A stretch of DNA of 64,000 nucleotides, taken from positions 1 to 64,000 of IMG/VR virus record IMGVR_UViG_3300006735_000022; one strand, written 5' to 3'. Each line of letters opens with the position of its first letter. Positions within the stretch are counted from its first letter, which is position 1. The notes under the pieces are model-generated. The model had not been told where the DNA came from and did no database searches. It was given only the letters and a program-made list of their open reading frames with translations. This stretch comes from a virus. Made by a program: the position numbers and the translations under genes. This document shows, in pieces, positions 16,995 to 22,759 of the stretch.

Positions 16995-17386
16995 ATTTTA
17001 CAAACTATCAACGTTTTGTCAACGGAGTGACAAGCAAGGAATCTCAGGATTCTGATGCCTTTATCTACCGTTTGCAGGAACTCGGTGGTGAGATTGCAGT
17101 GCAACGCCTTCTTACTGCTGCTGTTGGTATGTCCGCAGAGGCAGGTGAGTTCACTGAAATCGTGAAGAAGATGATCTTCCAAGGCAAACCTGCCAGCGAA
17201 GAGAATTTGTTTCACTTGAAACGAGAACTGGGTGACATCATGTGGTATGTTGCACAAGCATGTATGGCACTGGAAGTTGACATGGATGAGGTGCTAGATA
17301 TGAATATCAAGAAACTGGAAGCACGTTTTCCTGAAGGCACTTTCAGTGAGTTCTACTCAGAGAATCGTAAAGATGGAGACATCTGA
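16985..17386 (+). CDS. mazG: MazG-type pyrophosphohydrolase
   Basis: EAGEFTEIVKK, ELGDIMWY. Confidence 0.92.
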   Translation: MGVDFTNYQRFVNGVTSKESQDSDAFIYRLQELGGEIAVQRLLTAAVGMSAEAGEFTEIVKKMIFQGKPASEENLFHLKRELGDIMWYVAQACMALEVDMDEVLDMNIKKLEARFPEGTFSEFYSENRKDGDI

Positions 17387-18062
17387 CCTTTGCATCACCT
17401 GCATCAAGATTGGAGACAAGTTTGATGCAGAGTATGTAAACAAACTCTACAACATGGTGCGTCGTCAAACCGATGCACCATTTTTTTGCTTCACTGATAA
17501 CCCTAGTGGCATCAAAGAGGGTGTCACTGTGGTAGAAATCGATGTCTCTAAGTATGCTCAGTGGAAAAACTGGTGGGCAGCATGGTGGAAGATCAATATG
17601 TTTGTTCGTCCTGAAATTCAGGGGTTCAAACGTAAGTTGTTCTTCGATCTGGACGTGATTATCCATGGTGATATCACTAAGATTTTGGAAATCAATAGTC
17701 CATTTGCTCTAGTCTACTCCTCTTGGAAAGGACTCCCCTTTCAGGTCAAAAATCCAACCAAATCCTTGTTCAATTCCAGTGTAATTGCCTGGGATGATGC
17801 GAAGCACATTTATGATTACTGGGCACAAGATGCTAGGGGGTTTGTCGCTAAGTATGCTGGCACTGATGACTTCTATCACAACGAAAAGATAAAAAGATAT
17901 CGACTTCCTCCAATCATCTACTCATATAGAGATGGTTGTGCTCCAAAGCAGGAGAGTTCTTTGACGTTCAGACCTAAGATGGCACTTGCTATCCTACATC
18001 AACGTCCTAAAAACCACGAACTAGATCCTAGTGTTCACCCTATTGTAAAATACTGGGCATGA
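17373..18062 (+). CDS. GT-A fold glycosyltransferase
   Basis: CIKIGDKFDAEYVNKL, FCFTD, FFDLDVII (DxD), FNSSV. Confidence 0.7.
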   Translation: METSDLCITCIKIGDKFDAEYVNKLYNMVRRQTDAPFFCFTDNPSGIKEGVTVVEIDVSKYAQWKNWWAAWWKINMFVRPEIQGFKRKLFFDLDVIIHGDITKILEINSPFALVYSSWKGLPFQVKNPTKSLFNSSVIAWDDAKHIYDYWAQDARGFVAKYAGTDDFYHNEKIKRYRLPPIIYSYRDGCAPKQESSLTFRPKMALAILHQRPKNHELDPSVHPIVKYWA

Positions 18063-18063
18063 T

Positions 18064-18070
18064 CTAAATA
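18064..18070 (+). promoter_or_regulatory. late promoter CTAAATA
   Basis: 22 nt upstream of ATG 18092. Confidence 0.6.
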
Positions 18071-18091
18071 ATTTGGACAAGAGGAACTACT

Positions 18092-19153
18092 ATGGGATAT
18101 AAACCACCAGCACACCCCGAATCATACACTGTGAACTGGTTGATTTTGGATAATCAACCTGTAGATTATATTAGGAGGATTGCTGAGTCTTTTGAGGCAC
18201 AGATGACCCGGCGTATGCCAGGTAGAGTATCGTTCAATGTCCTTACCCATGATCAGTTTGAGAAAGAATATGGTAAACCCGCTAATTTAGACACTGCATT
18301 AGATTTTTTATATAAAAACACCATCCAGATAGTTGTTTACCCCACTGCTGTGTTGGGTGAAAAGATTAGGGAAGCAATTCATAGAAAGATGAATAAAATT
18401 CCAGAGAAAATAACCCCTTGGTTTACTGGTGAGACTGATTATACGGCACTTGATATGCCATATGCTTTCAGGAGTGAACAGCATGCCAACTCGTTCTTCC
18501 AGAGTGGACCAGGTGAAAAAGTTCTCTACTATAATAACTTTTTGAACATAAAATCCATGGCAATTGTGCCTTGGGGATCTCGTAGAGTCATCGCTGGAGA
18601 TAAACCATTCACAACTCCAGAAGATTTTGAAGGTGCCAAGATCAAAACTCAGTATGGGACTGCATTAGAGCAGGATATCTTTGAATCTCTGGGTGCTGAG
18701 GTTAGTGGCGATGCTGATGCATATGAAACTGATTTGGTGAACTTGGACTCGTCTAAGAAATATGTTACTGAGTTGAATCACAGTATCAATGGGTATGTTG
18801 TGCTAGCATCTCACCCATTCTGGAGACATTCTGTCAAGTGTGAGTGTGACTATAGAGATCACACCCCAGAAGAAGAGGATCATTGCTTGAGAAAGCAGAT
18901 GAAGCGAGCATGTAATGAAGCAGCACGTGCCACTAGTATTTGGAACGATAGTGATACAGAAAACCTGAGGAATGATCTGAAAGAGAAGGGTGTTCAATTT
19001 TTCTCGATCGATGACATTGATGCGTTCAAAGAAAAGACTAGGGGTGTATATGATAAATACATGAGCAAATTTACTCCAACTCTTTTCGATAATATAAATG
19101 AAACATGTGACCAAGAAGAGTCGGTATGGTGCGATAAGATGACAGTCACTTGA
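18092..19153 (+). CDS. divergent TRAP solute-binding protein (DctP-like), no signal peptide
   Basis: ALDMPYAFRS, TPEDFEGAKIK, FESLGA, YVTELNH, AFKEKTRGVYDKY. Confidence 0.75.
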   Translation: MGYKPPAHPESYTVNWLILDNQPVDYIRRIAESFEAQMTRRMPGRVSFNVLTHDQFEKEYGKPANLDTALDFLYKNTIQIVVYPTAVLGEKIREAIHRKMNKIPEKITPWFTGETDYTALDMPYAFRSEQHANSFFQSGPGEKVLYYNNFLNIKSMAIVPWGSRRVIAGDKPFTTPEDFEGAKIKTQYGTALEQDIFESLGAEVSGDADAYETDLVNLDSSKKYVTELNHSINGYVVLASHPFWRHSVKCECDYRDHTPEEEDHCLRKQMKRACNEAARATSIWNDSDTENLRNDLKEKGVQFFSIDDIDAFKEKTRGVYDKYMSKFTPTLFDNINETCDQEESVWCDKMTVT

Positions 19154-19178
19154 CTTTGCCATCTCAACATCTTATAAT
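19150..19178 (+). promoter_or_regulatory. host sigma70-type promoter
   Basis: TTGACT-N17-TATAAT. Confidence 0.8.
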
Positions 19179-19244
19179 TACAGTGGAACGACGCCGCCAC
19201 CCAAATAAAAGATCGTCGGTAATATATTCAGTAAAACATTCAAA

Positions 19245-19499
19245 ATGTCTTTTGCATCCCCTAAGTGGTTTGAGCGTTTCCCTCGGACCATCGCCAAAGC
19301 CGTTACTTGGCGTTCCTGGATGATGGTCACCAACTCCGTGATTGGTTGGATCGTTGCCGGTAACCCTTGGAAAGGTCTTACCATCGGACTTATGGCACTT
19401 GTGATCAACTCAACGCTCTATCTGCTGCACGAGCGTCTGTGGAACCGTAACGACTGGAACCGTCGTACGACTTCTGCAACGGATCGTGTGGTCATCTGA
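19245..19499 (+). CDS. DUF2061-like small two-TM membrane protein
   Basis: RTIAKAVTWR ... LYLLHERLW signature. Confidence 0.75.
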   Translation: MSFASPKWFERFPRTIAKAVTWRSWMMVTNSVIGWIVAGNPWKGLTIGLMALVINSTLYLLHERLWNRNDWNRRTTSATDRVVI

Positions 19500-19518
19500 G
19501 CCACATATCTAGCAGGGA

Positions 19519-19526
19519 TATAAATA
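19519..19526 (+). promoter_or_regulatory. late promoter TATAAATA
   Basis: perfect T4 late consensus upstream of ATG 19555. Confidence 0.75.
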
Positions 19527-19554
19527 CTTCTAACTGTTCAAGGATAACCTACTA

Positions 19555-20550
19555 ATGAAAAAAGTACGTTGGGTGCTAGCACACGAACCAATTGAGCTCT
19601 TCCTGAGAGCTGCAAGGAAGTTTGCCCATATGATGGAGATGCTTGATCCTGGTTATCTGGAAGTGGAAATTCTTACACTTTCCGAGTATGCCGACAAGTA
19701 TAATGATGGAGTTGCAATCTCCAAGCATGATATCTTGCAGTTGATGAAGGATGGTAAGATCGAAATGTCACAGATGTACACGTCCACTCTTGGACGTGAG
19801 CATAATACAGACCTTCGGGTCCTCGACATGCCCTATCTGTTCCGTGATCATGAGCACGCACAGAAGGTTCTAGAGGGTGACATTGGTCGCGAACTTCTCA
19901 GTGGTCTCGATGACGAGGCTAAGGGGCATCGTAGCGTTCATGGTCTGGCATTCACCTATTCAGGTGGATTCCGCATGATCCCTGCTAATAAAAAGATTGA
20001 AAAAATTGAAGATTTCCAAGGGCTTCCCCTTCGCTGTAACAACTCTGACATTGCCAAAGAAACACTGAAGGCAGTCGGTGCTGTTCCTGTTCCTATTGAA
20101 CTTGAGCAAATCAACGAAGGCGTGCAAGACGGCGACATTATTGGTGGTGAATCCACATACCCTCGTTTCTTCGGTTTGAAGCAAAACGAGTGCATGAACA
20201 CTATCAATGATGCAGAGCACTCTCTCTTCCTGACGACTATCATTGCAGAGAAGGATTTCTGGACATCTCTGCCCAGAGAAAAGCGCCTGCATATCAAGAG
20301 AGCATCAATTCTTGCAGCACGTGCTGAGCGTATCTGGTCTGTCGAAGACATTGATGTTGTAAAGAGTAAGTGCGTTGATGAGAACATCGAAGTTGTTACG
20401 ATGTCCGACTCCGAAAGAGCACGTTTCAAAGAGGCTACACTGCCCCTCTATGACCAGTTCAAGGACAGCTTCCCTGCCGGTATGGTTGATCGCATCCGTG
20501 CAGAAGAAGGTTGTGGCATGGAATTTGGTCTAGATGACGACGATTGTTGA
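19555..20550 (+). CDS. dctP: TRAP solute-binding protein (DctP family), no signal peptide
   Basis: VLDMPYLFRDHEHA, GGFR, IEDFQGLPLR, GAVPVPI, FWTSLP, RFKEATLPLYDQF. Confidence 0.85.
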   Translation: MKKVRWVLAHEPIELFLRAARKFAHMMEMLDPGYLEVEILTLSEYADKYNDGVAISKHDILQLMKDGKIEMSQMYTSTLGREHNTDLRVLDMPYLFRDHEHAQKVLEGDIGRELLSGLDDEAKGHRSVHGLAFTYSGGFRMIPANKKIEKIEDFQGLPLRCNNSDIAKETLKAVGAVPVPIELEQINEGVQDGDIIGGESTYPRFFGLKQNECMNTINDAEHSLFLTTIIAEKDFWTSLPREKRLHIKRASILAARAERIWSVEDIDVVKSKCVDENIEVVTMSDSERARFKEATLPLYDQFKDSFPAGMVDRIRAEEGCGMEFGLDDDDC

Positions 20551-20567
20551 TCACAATCTGAGTGACC

Positions 20568-20596
20568 AAAAGGCAGGCGTTATGCCTGCCTTTTTT
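20568..20596 (+). terminator. rho-independent terminator
   Basis: AAAAGGCAGGC-GTTAT-GCCTGCCTTTTTT. Confidence 0.9.
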
Positions 20597-20618: not shown

Positions 20619-21755
20619 ATGAGTTTGAAGCGAGATTATAGTCAACGTATATGGGCTAACCATGATTGGGACCATAAGTATTGTCCTGACCCTATTAGAT
20701 TTCCTCCCGACATTCAAAAACAGAGAGATACATTCTTTGATAAAGAGAATGCTCTGAACACTTACTTCATGACACGCATGATATGTCGTGCAGGTAGACT
20801 TCGTACTCGAAAAAAATATACAATCCTATCTCCTATCCTTCCCCGTGATGACCGCCATACTGATATGGACTTCGGGGATTGTGCAGATGAGTCAGCACTA
20901 GAGTGTATTAGAAAGGCAGATAATAGAAATGTAAATGTCCTGTGGTCAGGTGGTATTGATAGTACCGCAGTATTTTGGGCACTACAAAAAACTGGTCACC
21001 CATTCAATCTGCACTTTGATCCTGTTGCAGAGACAGAGCATCCTTTTTTGTGGGATCTTCTCCATAAGAATAAGTTTCCCCAAGTAACTTTGTGTAATAA
21101 TTATGGGATGGGACTCATTGATGATTATGCCGATGACCCAGACCATTACTTTGTTATGGGTGAACCTGGAGATAATATACACGGTGCAGGTAGGTCATTT
21201 ATCTTCAGTAAAGAACAAAGGAATGCTCCATACCATGAGAATGTTCCAGAGTATATTGACAAGATGTTGTTTCAGTCAGTAATGGAGGTACTCAATAAAC
21301 CTGATGCTAATTTGAAGCAATGGCATTGGGCAATGAGTTACACGTGTAAATATCAATATTGTATGCTTCGTTCTATTAGAAACTTTCATCTGTATTGTTA
21401 CGACCGTCCTGGTATCCCGGCAAACCTTCATCTTTTTTATGACACCCCTAATTTCAACAGGTGGTCTATTACAAATCAAACAGAGAATAGTGCATGGCAA
21501 GAACATCGTGAGTATAAGATGCCCGCTAAAGACTATTGTCTAGTAAATGGTGACTCTCAAGATTATAGGGATAATAAATTGAAAGTCCCATCATCTAACA
21601 GGGAACGTTTGACTATGTTTACTAAACCTTGTTCTGGTATGGTTGTAGATGAGGATTGGATGTTGGTTATCAAAAGAACTTTTGGTTCTTCAGCACCTGA
21701 TATTGAATACGGTGGTAGAACTCTAAGGAACGGAGAAGTAAGTAGACTACCATGA
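20619..21755 (+). CDS. N-type ATP pyrophosphatase, asparagine-synthetase-like synthetase domain only
   Basis: PP-loop VLWSGGIDST plus MGEPGDNIHG (compare AsnB SGEGADELFG); no N-terminal Cys glutaminase domain. Confidence 0.7.
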   Translation: MSLKRDYSQRIWANHDWDHKYCPDPIRFPPDIQKQRDTFFDKENALNTYFMTRMICRAGRLRTRKKYTILSPILPRDDRHTDMDFGDCADESALECIRKADNRNVNVLWSGGIDSTAVFWALQKTGHPFNLHFDPVAETEHPFLWDLLHKNKFPQVTLCNNYGMGLIDDYADDPDHYFVMGEPGDNIHGAGRSFIFSKEQRNAPYHENVPEYIDKMLFQSVMEVLNKPDANLKQWHWAMSYTCKYQYCMLRSIRNFHLYCYDRPGIPANLHLFYDTPNFNRWSITNQTENSAWQEHREYKMPAKDYCLVNGDSQDYRDNKLKVPSSNRERLTMFTKPCSGMVVDEDWMLVIKRTFGSSAPDIEYGGRTLRNGEVSRLP

Positions 21756-22759
21756 AAAGATCTAACACTCGGTTAGCAGATGTCAATGAAATTTTTTGTA
21801 CATTTCTTCTGAATAACAGACAATTTCCTGACCCTGCTACCGAAAGGGAATTCAAAAGGAAAGTTACTTTACTATCTGATAAAGAAATTGCAGAGCAGAC
21901 TGGTCGTGCTCGTGTGATGGTAAAGGAGTTCTTGAGGATAGCAGGTGCTAAGGGATATCAGTTTCCCAAAGCAGTTTATTGGACTGCTAGACCTGGTTTC
22001 AACTTCCAACAATTATTGGGTGTCAAAATAAACCAGAACAAGTTCCCTGCTGACATCCTAGTGGAGTTTAGGGGTGGTGGATTCCTTGGGTTCTCTGCAA
22101 AATCAACTACCAGTGGTGATGTGGGATTCAAAAACCCTGGTATGGGAACAGTTGATAGGGAATTGGGTATCAACAATACAGATTACGTCACAAAGCAAGA
22201 GCAAGTTATACGAAACGTGTATAAGGACTTTGGGCGTTTGAGTAATGAGTTGAGATCAAACCAAATGAGAAAATGGAAAGAGGCTGCAGACCCTAAGTTC
22301 CTTGATATATCACGTAGGGGATCTAAAGTAGAGACATACTGTAGGAATAGGTTGCTTACACGTCTCAATCAAATGGTTACTCAAGAAGAACGCAGAGATT
22401 ATATTATTGGTAGTTGGTTAGATGCCACTGATGCATATCCTCCTTATCTAAAAGTGACTGGTAATGGTACAGCAGAAGAAGTTCAATTGCCCATACCACT
22501 TCCTCCTGTTCCGTTCGCTCAACAAATTCTAAATTTAGTATTTCCTCCTGGTTGGGGAGGTAGGTTCACTGCAACGGTGTATGATCCTATGCAGAACAGT
22601 AAGATGGATGCATTGAACACTAAAAAGATTACATTCACCAAAGCAGGTAGTAATAGTATTGCGGTGAAGGCAGGACAGAAACCTCTGTTCAATATGAGAT
22701 ATAAGTTTTCCGGTTACAAATTTGCTAGTAGTATGAAACTCTCAGGAGACCCACGATGA
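21752..22759 (+). CDS. probable PD-(D/E)xK-fold endonuclease
   Basis: N-terminal NE, PADILV...GFSAK, FKNPG; basic protein. Confidence 0.5.
   Translation: MKRSNTRLADVNEIFCTFLLNNRQFPDPATEREFKRKVTLLSDKEIAEQTGRARVMVKEFLRIAGAKGYQFPKAVYWTARPGFNFQQLLGVKINQNKFPADILVEFRGGGFLGFSAKSTTSGDVGFKNPGMGTVDRELGINNTDYVTKQEQVIRNVYKDFGRLSNELRSNQMRKWKEAADPKFLDISRRGSKVETYCRNRLLTRLNQMVTQEERRDYIIGSWLDATDAYPPYLKVTGNGTAEEVQLPIPLPPVPFAQQILNLVFPPGWGGRFTATVYDPMQNSKMDALNTKKITFTKAGSNSIAVKAGQKPLFNMRYKFSGYKFASSMKLSGDPR

Follow-up and report, generated by a model that had tools for sequence, protein, structure and literature searches.

Two leaderless DctP-fold proteins at one variable site of a T4-like marine phage: a candidate intracellular role for the TRAP binding-protein fold

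The DNA studied here is a stretch of 64,000 nucleotides (the window), positions 1 to 64,000 of IMG/VR virus record IMGVR_UViG_3300006735_000022, and is part of an 84,935-bp viral contig rated 45% complete by CheckV. It contains a block in which two genes for DctP-type proteins, DctP-A and DctP-B, flank a gene for an 84-amino-acid (84-aa) protein of the DUF2061 family. DctP-type proteins are the binding proteins of TRAP (tripartite ATP-independent periplasmic) transporters and are textbook periplasmic receptors. However, both proteins of the block are made without a leader and without a TRAP permease partner. We suggest that DctP-B is a cytoplasmic carboxylate binder that acts with the DUF2061 protein and is usually coupled to a ligase encoded next to it, that DctP-A is an independent cytoplasmic binder without the canonical arginine, and that neither is part of a transporter; we give this reading as a whole about an even chance. 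DctP-A and the cassette formed by DUF2061, DctP-B and the ligase most likely act inside the infected cell, in an undescribed pathway.

If this is correct, the leaderless subfamily to which DctP-B belongs, found beside carboxylate-activating enzymes in genomes without TRAP permeases (Bdellovibrionota predators, Candidate Phyla Radiation (CPR) bacteria and phages), would represent a second, intracellular life of the DctP fold. For phage biology, the analysis defines an abundant, unexplained cargo cassette of marine cyanomyophages and a second, fast-evolving leaderless DctP. Both DctPs lend themselves to expression and ligand screening, which opens the question to a direct test.

Two cargoes at one variable site

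The genes of the block and those next to it are the following.

17346-18062: glycosyltransferase-like protein, 238 aa (phrog_1962)
18092-19153, plus strand: DctP-A, 353 aa (PF03480, E 1.9e-18)
19245-19499, plus strand: DUF2061 small protein, 84 aa (PF09834, E 3.6e-13)
19555-20550, plus strand: DctP-B, 331 aa (PF03480, E 5.1e-40)
20619-21755, plus strand: stand-alone AsnB-type synthetase domain with PP-loop SGGIDS, 378 aa (alignment A2 and structural matches), below called the ligase
21752-22759, plus strand: 335-aa protein, no family match (Pfam and NCBIfam searched)

The three central open reading frames (ORFs) are as described in the first-pass annotation of the window, and the motifs quoted there are present (LDMPYAFR and LDMPYLFR, EDFEGAKIK and EDFQGLPLR). 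In Pfam, DctP-A, DctP-B and the DUF2061 protein all score above the gathering cut-offs. The block was placed from 18064, which is intergenic spacer; the first ORF begins at 18092.

The window phage is a T4-like myovirus and putative cyanophage, with genes for UvsX-like, gp41-like helicase and MazG proteins just upstream of the block. The block occupies a variable site between the MazG and glycosyltransferase-like genes on one side and conserved genes for a 100-aa and a 298-aa protein on the other. The ten contigs with the closest backbone (L049-L058; UvsX 91-94% and gp41 about 90% identical to the window) have the gene order MazG, glycosyltransferase-like, DctP-A and then the conserved 100-aa and 298-aa genes, and none of them contains DUF2061, DctP-B or the ligase. 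One of these ten (G006) is a record of 192,351 bp that is rated 100% complete; no DUF2061, DctM or DctQ gene was found anywhere in it.

The other genes form a cargo of their own. In IMG/VR, 53 viral contigs encode a DUF2061 protein at least 63% identical to that of the window, and 50 of these have room downstream. DctP-B starts 24-74 nt after DUF2061 in all 50. Where at least 2.3 kb of further sequence is available (42 contigs), the AsnB-type ligase follows DctP-B in 39. None of the 53 cassette contigs contains DctP-A (L005-L018 and L059-L109 carry the cassette without it). The cassette is thus abundant, with at least 50 IMG/VR contigs, and the linkage of DUF2061 to DctP-B across phages, for which a neighbourhood survey had been proposed, is strict. 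The terminator behind DctP-B, taken at first as the end of the block, is not the end of the unit, which usually runs past it into the ligase.

The exact cassette of the window, i.e., DUF2061, DctP-B, one ligase and the 335-aa gene, follows directly after the glycosyltransferase-like gene in seven contigs that lack DctP-A (L062, L065-L068, L070 and L072). Both cargoes are found together only in the window's own lineage, which consists of the window and the 97%-identical contigs L046 and L048. The window is therefore a mosaic that carries two alternative cargoes of one variable site in tandem. The idea of a single module, in which two DctPs sandwich DUF2061, is not supported, as DctP-A stands alone in ten relatives and the cassette lacks it in all other contigs found.

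DUF2061, DctP-B and the ligase are also present between the gp16 and gp17 terminase genes of L097/L124, from another T4-like group, where they are not next to MazG. It is clear from this second site that the cassette moves as a unit. A contig from a Burkholderiales metagenome-assembled genome (MAG), L020, has DctP, DUF2061, an unknown gene and the ligase contiguously, and in the more distant phage contigs L110 and L122 DUF2061 and a relative of DctP-B lie 1.2-2.3 kb apart.

An assembly chimera as the source of the arrangement is ruled out by seven marine metagenome runs with 98% of the block's sampled words, and by an independent DNA contig (X8, 17863-19425) that spans the glycosyltransferase-like gene, DctP-A and DUF2061. 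At least part of the block is present in 20 metagenome runs from 14 studies. A megablast search of the block against isolated phages gave no match, and the only tblastn matches were to ordinary DctPs at 21-25%, in fragmentary or mislabelled records.

Downstream of the ligase, the cassette lineages differ. The 335-aa protein of the window has no match in Pfam or NCBIfam. In a lineage with a cassette at 69% identity (L005-L017), two tandem ligase paralogues are followed by a conserved 270-273-aa protein (e.g. L010:9312-10130), to which the 335-aa protein is unrelated.

Leaders, folds and binding sites

In both DctP ORFs, the start codon is the earliest that an upstream in-frame stop allows, which leaves no room for a hidden leader. 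Over the first 40 residues, Kyte-Doolittle averages of 10 residues peak at 0.56 (DctP-A) and 0.91 (DctP-B), i.e., not hydrophobic, and in the AlphaFold model of DctP-B (pLDDT 94.6; predicted local distance difference test) strand 1 runs from residue 2. Neither protein has the signal peptide or lipobox of a TRAP component. With ORFs that are not extendable and N-termini that are not hydrophobic, the missing N-terminal signal reported in the first-pass annotation is confirmed.

The lack of DctQ and DctM in the window extends further. A search of the whole 84,935-bp contig, itself 45% complete, gave no match to either, and none was found in the cassette-bearing records G007, G008 and G010. Of five bacterial genomes with the DctP-B subfamily, four likewise have no DctM, among them a CPR genome of 0.8 Mb; these are MAGs, in which absence is not proof. 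Since both DctPs are leaderless and have no TRAP permease partner, the non-periplasmic role proposed for them at the outset is the best reading.

One further cassette-bearing record, the 115-kb T4-like phage contig G009, carries a TAXI-type TRAP pair on the minus strand between its gp17 terminase and gp18 sheath genes (L124:5202-7464), about 2 kb from the DUF2061-DctP-B-ligase cassette. Its members are a DctM-family permease of 433 aa (PF06808, 192 bits) and an NMT1_3/TAXI binding protein of 322 aa, whose N-terminus is signal-like; there was no match to DctQ.

DctP-B is an intact member of its fold. It scores 138 bits against PF03480 (cut-off 23.4), which is below the equivalog-level cut-off of 175 of TIGR00787, and its sequence matches structures of TRAP solute-binding proteins with E-values down to 2e-25. 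The model has the two lobes and the long spanning helix of these proteins and aligns over about 315 residues to the mature forms of 4mx6, 8t9t, 4ovr and SiaP (Foldseek TM 0.80-0.91). R160 of DctP-B aligns with the carboxylate-binding arginine of 4ovr and 4n8y; it is invariant in nine close members (alignment A1) and kept in 26 of 35 across the wider subfamily. In TRAP binding proteins this arginine, R147 of SiaP, pairs with the carboxylate of the ligand (PMC4646407). DctP-B ends in an acidic, cysteine-containing tail, ...EEGCGMEFGLDDDDC (residues ~317-331, 20500-20550), which is not in its 314-aa relatives, and residues 325-331 are disordered in the model.

The subfamily of DctP-B, comprising 155 representatives of 50% identity clusters at E < 1e-30 in an exhaustive HMMER search, is marked by an N-terminal W-[VI]-[LI]-A-H-E-P motif. 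In 113 of the 120 closest homologues the start of W-[VI]-[LI]-A-H-E falls on residues 3-17, and a hydrophobic N-terminal window is absent from all 120. Invariant in 35 diverse members are H10, H101, T134-Y135-S136-G137-G138, R204, H222, T227, E258 and R259.

In species-representative genomes, 27 loci were found, mainly from Bdellovibrionota, with two CPR bacteria, a few proteobacterial MAGs and no cyanobacterium. The leaderless members occur in two contexts. One contains an AMP-binding ligase, an SDR, a beta-keto-acid cleavage enzyme (BKACE), a 254-aa unknown protein, an AsnB-type ligase, DctP, a carrier protein and MBOAT, and the other a Crp-type regulator, an MFS permease, a 205-aa protein with an H-x-D...H motif and DctP. 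In eight of the 27 bacterial loci, the leaderless DctP has a member of the ligase family within 10 kb, and this family is present in four of the five bacterial genomes with the subfamily.

The unit with the MFS permease is kept in L021, L022, L023, L027, L028, L030 and L044 (Bdellovibrionota and a gammaproteobacterial MAG). Its 205-aa protein has no Pfam match and an invariant P-H-T-D ... H-S-V-E motif, which could possibly be an Fe(II)/2-oxoglutarate-oxygenase-like triad. The 205-aa (c16) and 254-aa (c18) neighbour families are unrelated to each other, and c18 is also unrelated to the glycosyltransferase-like and 335-aa proteins of the window and to the 273-aa protein of its relatives. Members of the subfamily that bear signal peptides (L031, L032, L040, L043 and L045) have AMP-binding, MBOAT, acyl carrier protein (ACP), ketosynthase, sulfatase-like and NitT/TauT-type ABC genes as neighbours, with no DctM or DctQ among those annotated; in L031, the DctP directly follows an ABC permease gene.

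The ligase is recognized by its structure. Its sequence has no match in the PDB, and its score of 11.3 bits to Pfam Asn_synthase is below the cut-off. The model (pLDDT 70, with the first 38 residues disordered) is closest, using VIA-align, to human asparagine synthetase (Z 11.7), TsnB9 (Z 11.4), beta-lactam synthetase (Z 11.1), AsnB (Z 9.6) and carbapenam synthetase CarA (Z 9.0). Generic PP-loop ATPases reach Z 8.6 or lower, and Foldseek agrees with the ranking of the AsnB class. SGGxDS, E140, D185 and G189 are invariant in alignment A2. The protein thus has the PP-loop and the synthetase-domain fold of the AsnB class; however, the N-terminal-nucleophile (Ntn) glutaminase domain is missing, and the model aligns only to the C-terminal synthetase halves (target residues ~139-189 onward). 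Members of this class activate a carboxylate by adenylation, with an amide, lactam or hydroxamate as the product. Two other identities for the PP-loop gene were rejected: a 7-deazaguanine (QueC-like) enzyme, for which there is just a weak match to phrog_1550 and no TGT or DpdA in the contig, and a WbuX-type sugar amidotransferase, for which there is no NCBIfam match.

The DUF2061 protein covers the whole 52-residue domain (profile positions 1-52; 50.2 bits, cut-off 23.1). It has two moderately hydrophobic helices, with a best 19-residue window of 1.51; because this hydrophobicity is modest, we can only infer that it inserts into the membrane. Among its first 23 residues five are basic against a single acidic one, and the tail at the C-terminus has a basic net charge, so by the positive-inside rule both ends would be cytoplasmic. 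Polar residues are conserved within the helices (T21, W22, R23, N30, N55, S56, H62, E63 and R64, alignment A6). Across backbone-related phage contigs the protein is 83-96% identical, where DctP-B is 64-80% identical, and in the L089-L109 group it is 68-72% identical. The family is induced by iron limitation or loss of Fur in Caulobacter and Shewanella (PMC3751524, PMC12442407).

DctP-A is a more distant relative. It scores 67.2 bits against the same PF03480 cut-off, also below that of TIGR00787, and its assignment to the fold is based on a profile-profile comparison with the DctP-B family (hhalign probability 99.9%). Here the canonical arginine is replaced by K185 (HMMER alignment to 4xfe), a position that varies between K, R, S and H in the eight-member DctP-A family (alignment A3). 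An insertion of 15 residues at the start of the long helix gives the pattern C250-x-C252-x4-H257-x7-C265-x8-C274, with these four cysteines and the histidine invariant in the same alignment, and it is probably a metal site. The two DctPs had been called paralogues. They are indeed related, but a recent duplication is not supported, as they are 23% identical and DctP-A is on a long separate branch in a quick tree.

The DctP-A family is a rare one: 5.8 billion proteins contain just eight clusters of it at 90% identity. Between the window and L049-L057 DctP-A is 43-47% identical, whereas its flanks (UvsX, gp41, MazG, the glycosyltransferase-like and the 298-aa proteins) are 83-94% identical in the same phages. 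From this difference DctP-A appears to be fast-evolving or swapped, i.e., it either diverged much faster than its neighbourhood or the allele was replaced.

Proposed mechanism and alternatives

We suggest that two independent cargoes lie side by side in the block, at a single variable site of a T4-like cyanophage, and that this juxtaposition is specific to the lineage. The first would be the mobile cassette of DUF2061, DctP-B and the AsnB-type ligase, joined in the window by the 335-aa unknown. As it is made without a leader, DctP-B would stay in the cytoplasm, where, intact and arginine-bearing, it may bind a carboxylate metabolite. It would usually work with, hand over to or be otherwise coupled to the ligase, a putative glutaminase-less, ATP-dependent, carboxylate-adenylating amide ligase, and the DUF2061 hairpin, with its basic tails in the cytoplasm, could serve to anchor or couple DctP-B on the membrane's inner face. 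The carboxylate logic follows from the conserved R160, the AsnB-class fold of the ligase and the carboxylate-handling bacterial neighbours (AMP-binding ligases, ACP, BKACE and SDR, and also the MFS permease). The second cargo, DctP-A, would be the one resident in the closest relatives of the window. It would be a fast-diverging derivative without a leader, with the canonical arginine lost and a Cys/His (probably metal) site gained, and would act on its own in the cytoplasm to bind a different ligand.

It can be speculated further that a large TRAP-independent clade of cytoplasmic DctP-fold proteins is the substrate-capturing subunit of glutaminase-less AsnB-type ligases. This binding-protein-dependent enzyme would be spread by T4-like cyanophages as a mobile cassette with a DUF2061 membrane anchor, and would make an amide (or, as TsnB9 does, a hydroxamate) from a host carboxylate during infection. 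We regard this stronger version as rather unlikely.

Several observations weigh against the reading of DctP-B as a cytoplasmic partner of the ligase and of DUF2061. The ligase is absent after DUF2061-DctP-B in L092, L093 and L106, and eight bacterial loci have DctP with the MFS permease and the 205-aa protein instead of a ligase; because of these three contigs and eight loci, the ligase is not obligatory. None of the five bacterial genomes with the subfamily encodes DUF2061 (again MAGs, in which absence is not proof), so a tether by DUF2061 is phage-specific at best. About half of the 50%-identity representatives of the subfamily are leaderless, and the remainder, with clear Sec signal peptides, group as a single clade, so the subfamily fold can also work outside the cell; the quick tree has no canonical DctP outgroup, and the direction of gain or loss of the signal peptide is thus not readable from it. 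The absence of a permease is limited by the 45% completeness of the window's own contig, and in G009 a DctM-family permease lies 2 kb from the cassette, paired with its own exported TAXI binding protein. Finally, the RNA-library contigs described in the last section may be carried-over DNA.

Other explanations keep DctP-B in the cytoplasm. The DctP fold could itself be the enzyme, with leaderless DctP-B catalysing a step on a carboxylate before or after the ligase. Other enzymes with a binding-protein fold exist, such as THI5/NMT1, MqnD and cyclohexadienyl dehydratase, and the subfamily sits inside bacterial enzyme clusters and has many invariant polar residues beyond the usual arginine in its 35 diverse members. 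However, several of these residues, namely those of the AH..P and FRD.H motifs, recur widely in ordinary transport DctPs and the model of DctP-B superposes fully on ligand-binding proteins, and we find a catalytic role unlikely. A sponge or sensor, the main inference of the first-pass annotation, in which leaderless DctP-A, DctP-B or both would keep a host metabolite or signalling molecule bound in the cytoplasm, e.g., to blunt a host response, without being coupled to an enzyme, seems quite improbable given the 39 of 42 phage contigs in which DctP-B is linked to the ligase and the wide presence of its subfamily in bacterial metabolic clusters. In its favour, DctP-A stands alone in a complete phage genome, and its 43-47% identity against 83-94% in the flanks is as expected in an arms race; the three contigs with DUF2061-DctP-B and no ligase also fit. 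No PADLOC defence model matched, which says little, as that library is without anti-defence proteins.

Two further explanations return DctP-B to transport. One is a minimal non-canonical transporter, the alternative given in the first-pass annotation, with oligomeric DUF2061 hairpins as the membrane pathway that DctP-B would serve. To our knowledge, there is no precedent for an 84-aa two-helix protein as the solute carrier for a binding protein, and a leaderless DctP-B is on the wrong side for uptake. DUF2061 is missing from all five bacterial genomes with the DctP subfamily, and we found no fused forms of DUF2061, which is weak evidence. Even with the adjacency of the pair in all 50 phage contigs, its persistence in the three without a ligase, the higher conservation of DUF2061 than of DctP-B and the conserved polar residues within the DUF2061 helices, we judge such a transporter very unlikely. 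Late release, by which a holin-like DUF2061 lets leaderless DctP-B into the periplasm late in infection to feed a host or phage TRAP-type permease, is scarcely credible. It would draw on the late-promoter-like TATAAATA before DctP-B, the DctM-family permease near the cassette in one phage (G009) and the exported clade within the same subfamily. Yet DUF2061 is a widespread bacterial iron/Fur-responsive family and not a known holin, the G009 permease has its own exported TAXI partner, and the other four phage records have no DctM or DctQ. The likeness of DUF2061 to class II holins is confined to the size, the two helices and the charged C-terminal tail.

Compared with known systems, the reading of DctP-B and DctP-A as cytoplasmic binders sets them apart from the TRAP binding proteins whose fold they share (PF03480; SiaP, DctP PA5167, IseP 8t9t, 4mx6, 4ovr and 4n8y). 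DctP-B has the whole two-lobe fold and the arginine, and DctP-A is a weaker profile match. However, both are without signal peptide and lipobox, and DctQ and DctM are missing from the phage and from most bacterial genomes that carry the subfamily. The DctP-B subfamily has its own W-[VI]-[LI]-A-H-E-P motif, an invariant R204 and enzymes instead of permeases as neighbours, while DctP-A has no arginine and carries the Cys/His insertion. The ligase shares the PP-loop SGGxDS of asparagine synthetase B, beta-lactam synthetase, carbapenam synthetase and the hydroxyamidotransferase TsnB9, with Z 9.0-11.7, but differs from all of these in having no N-terminal glutaminase domain and in falling below the Pfam Asn_synthase cut-off. 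In a literature search, we did not find a description of a binding-protein-fold gene paired with an AsnB-class enzyme, nor a paper on phage DctP or leaderless TRAP proteins; in text searches, "DctP" collides with "dCTP".

Phage PstS is exported, whereas the Sec and Tat routes to the periplasm are closed to DctP-A and DctP-B, which also lack a permease partner, and the DctP-B subfamily is without a close cyanobacterial homologue among the 27 genome loci. The two cases are alike in that a binding-protein-fold gene is a cargo of marine T4-like phages, and the PstS of cyanophages and pelagimyophages has been modelled and discussed as taking the place of the host PstS at the PstAB permease of the host (PMC12379486). 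The genes of TTT/Bug-type binding proteins likewise far exceed their membrane partners in number or occur without them, and one such orphan, AdpC, is described as periplasmic (PMC5812351); they belong to a different fold family, and DctP-A and DctP-B are leaderless.

Regulatory signals and transcripts

In one marine metatranscriptome (X20), two contigs that are 100% identical to the window cover 19265-19563 and 20154-20409, i.e., parts of the cassette, and none covers DctP-A, the ligase or the 335-aa gene. Two further metatranscriptome runs (X21 and X22) have no contigs over the block. These are contigs from RNA libraries and prove neither silence nor expression; they are a weak hint that the cassette is possibly transcribed in situ.

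The following signals were predicted in and directly behind the block.

19150-19178, plus strand: sigma-70-like promoter, TTGACT-17-TATAAT, 5' of DUF2061 (11 of the 12 consensus positions agree; assigned by consensus match alone)
19519-19526, plus strand: T4-type late-promoter-like motif, TATAAATA, ending 29 nt before the start codon of DctP-B
20568-20594, plus strand: intrinsic terminator after DctP-B, 12-bp stem with six G-C pairs, followed by a T-run

The strong terminator proposed after DctP-B is therefore present, with its 12-bp stem and T-run, and L010 and L008 have a terminator of different sequence at the same place between DctP-B and the ligase. The promoter upstream of DUF2061 recurs in relatives, as the same TTGAC-N17-TATAAT in L059 and as TTGACA-18-TAAAAT at the corresponding place in L062, L065 and L068. 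At the position of TATAAATA, relatives carry AATAAATA. In the window, eight of 24 occurrences of TAAATA lie 8-60 nt upstream of long ORFs, against 6% expected, which is only a hint that TATAAATA may be a late promoter. A further motif, AAAGATCGTC (19208-19217), lies about 30-40 nt upstream of the DUF2061 start codon and is kept in L059, L062, L065, L068, L075 and L097, although the surrounding spacer has diverged (alignment A9).

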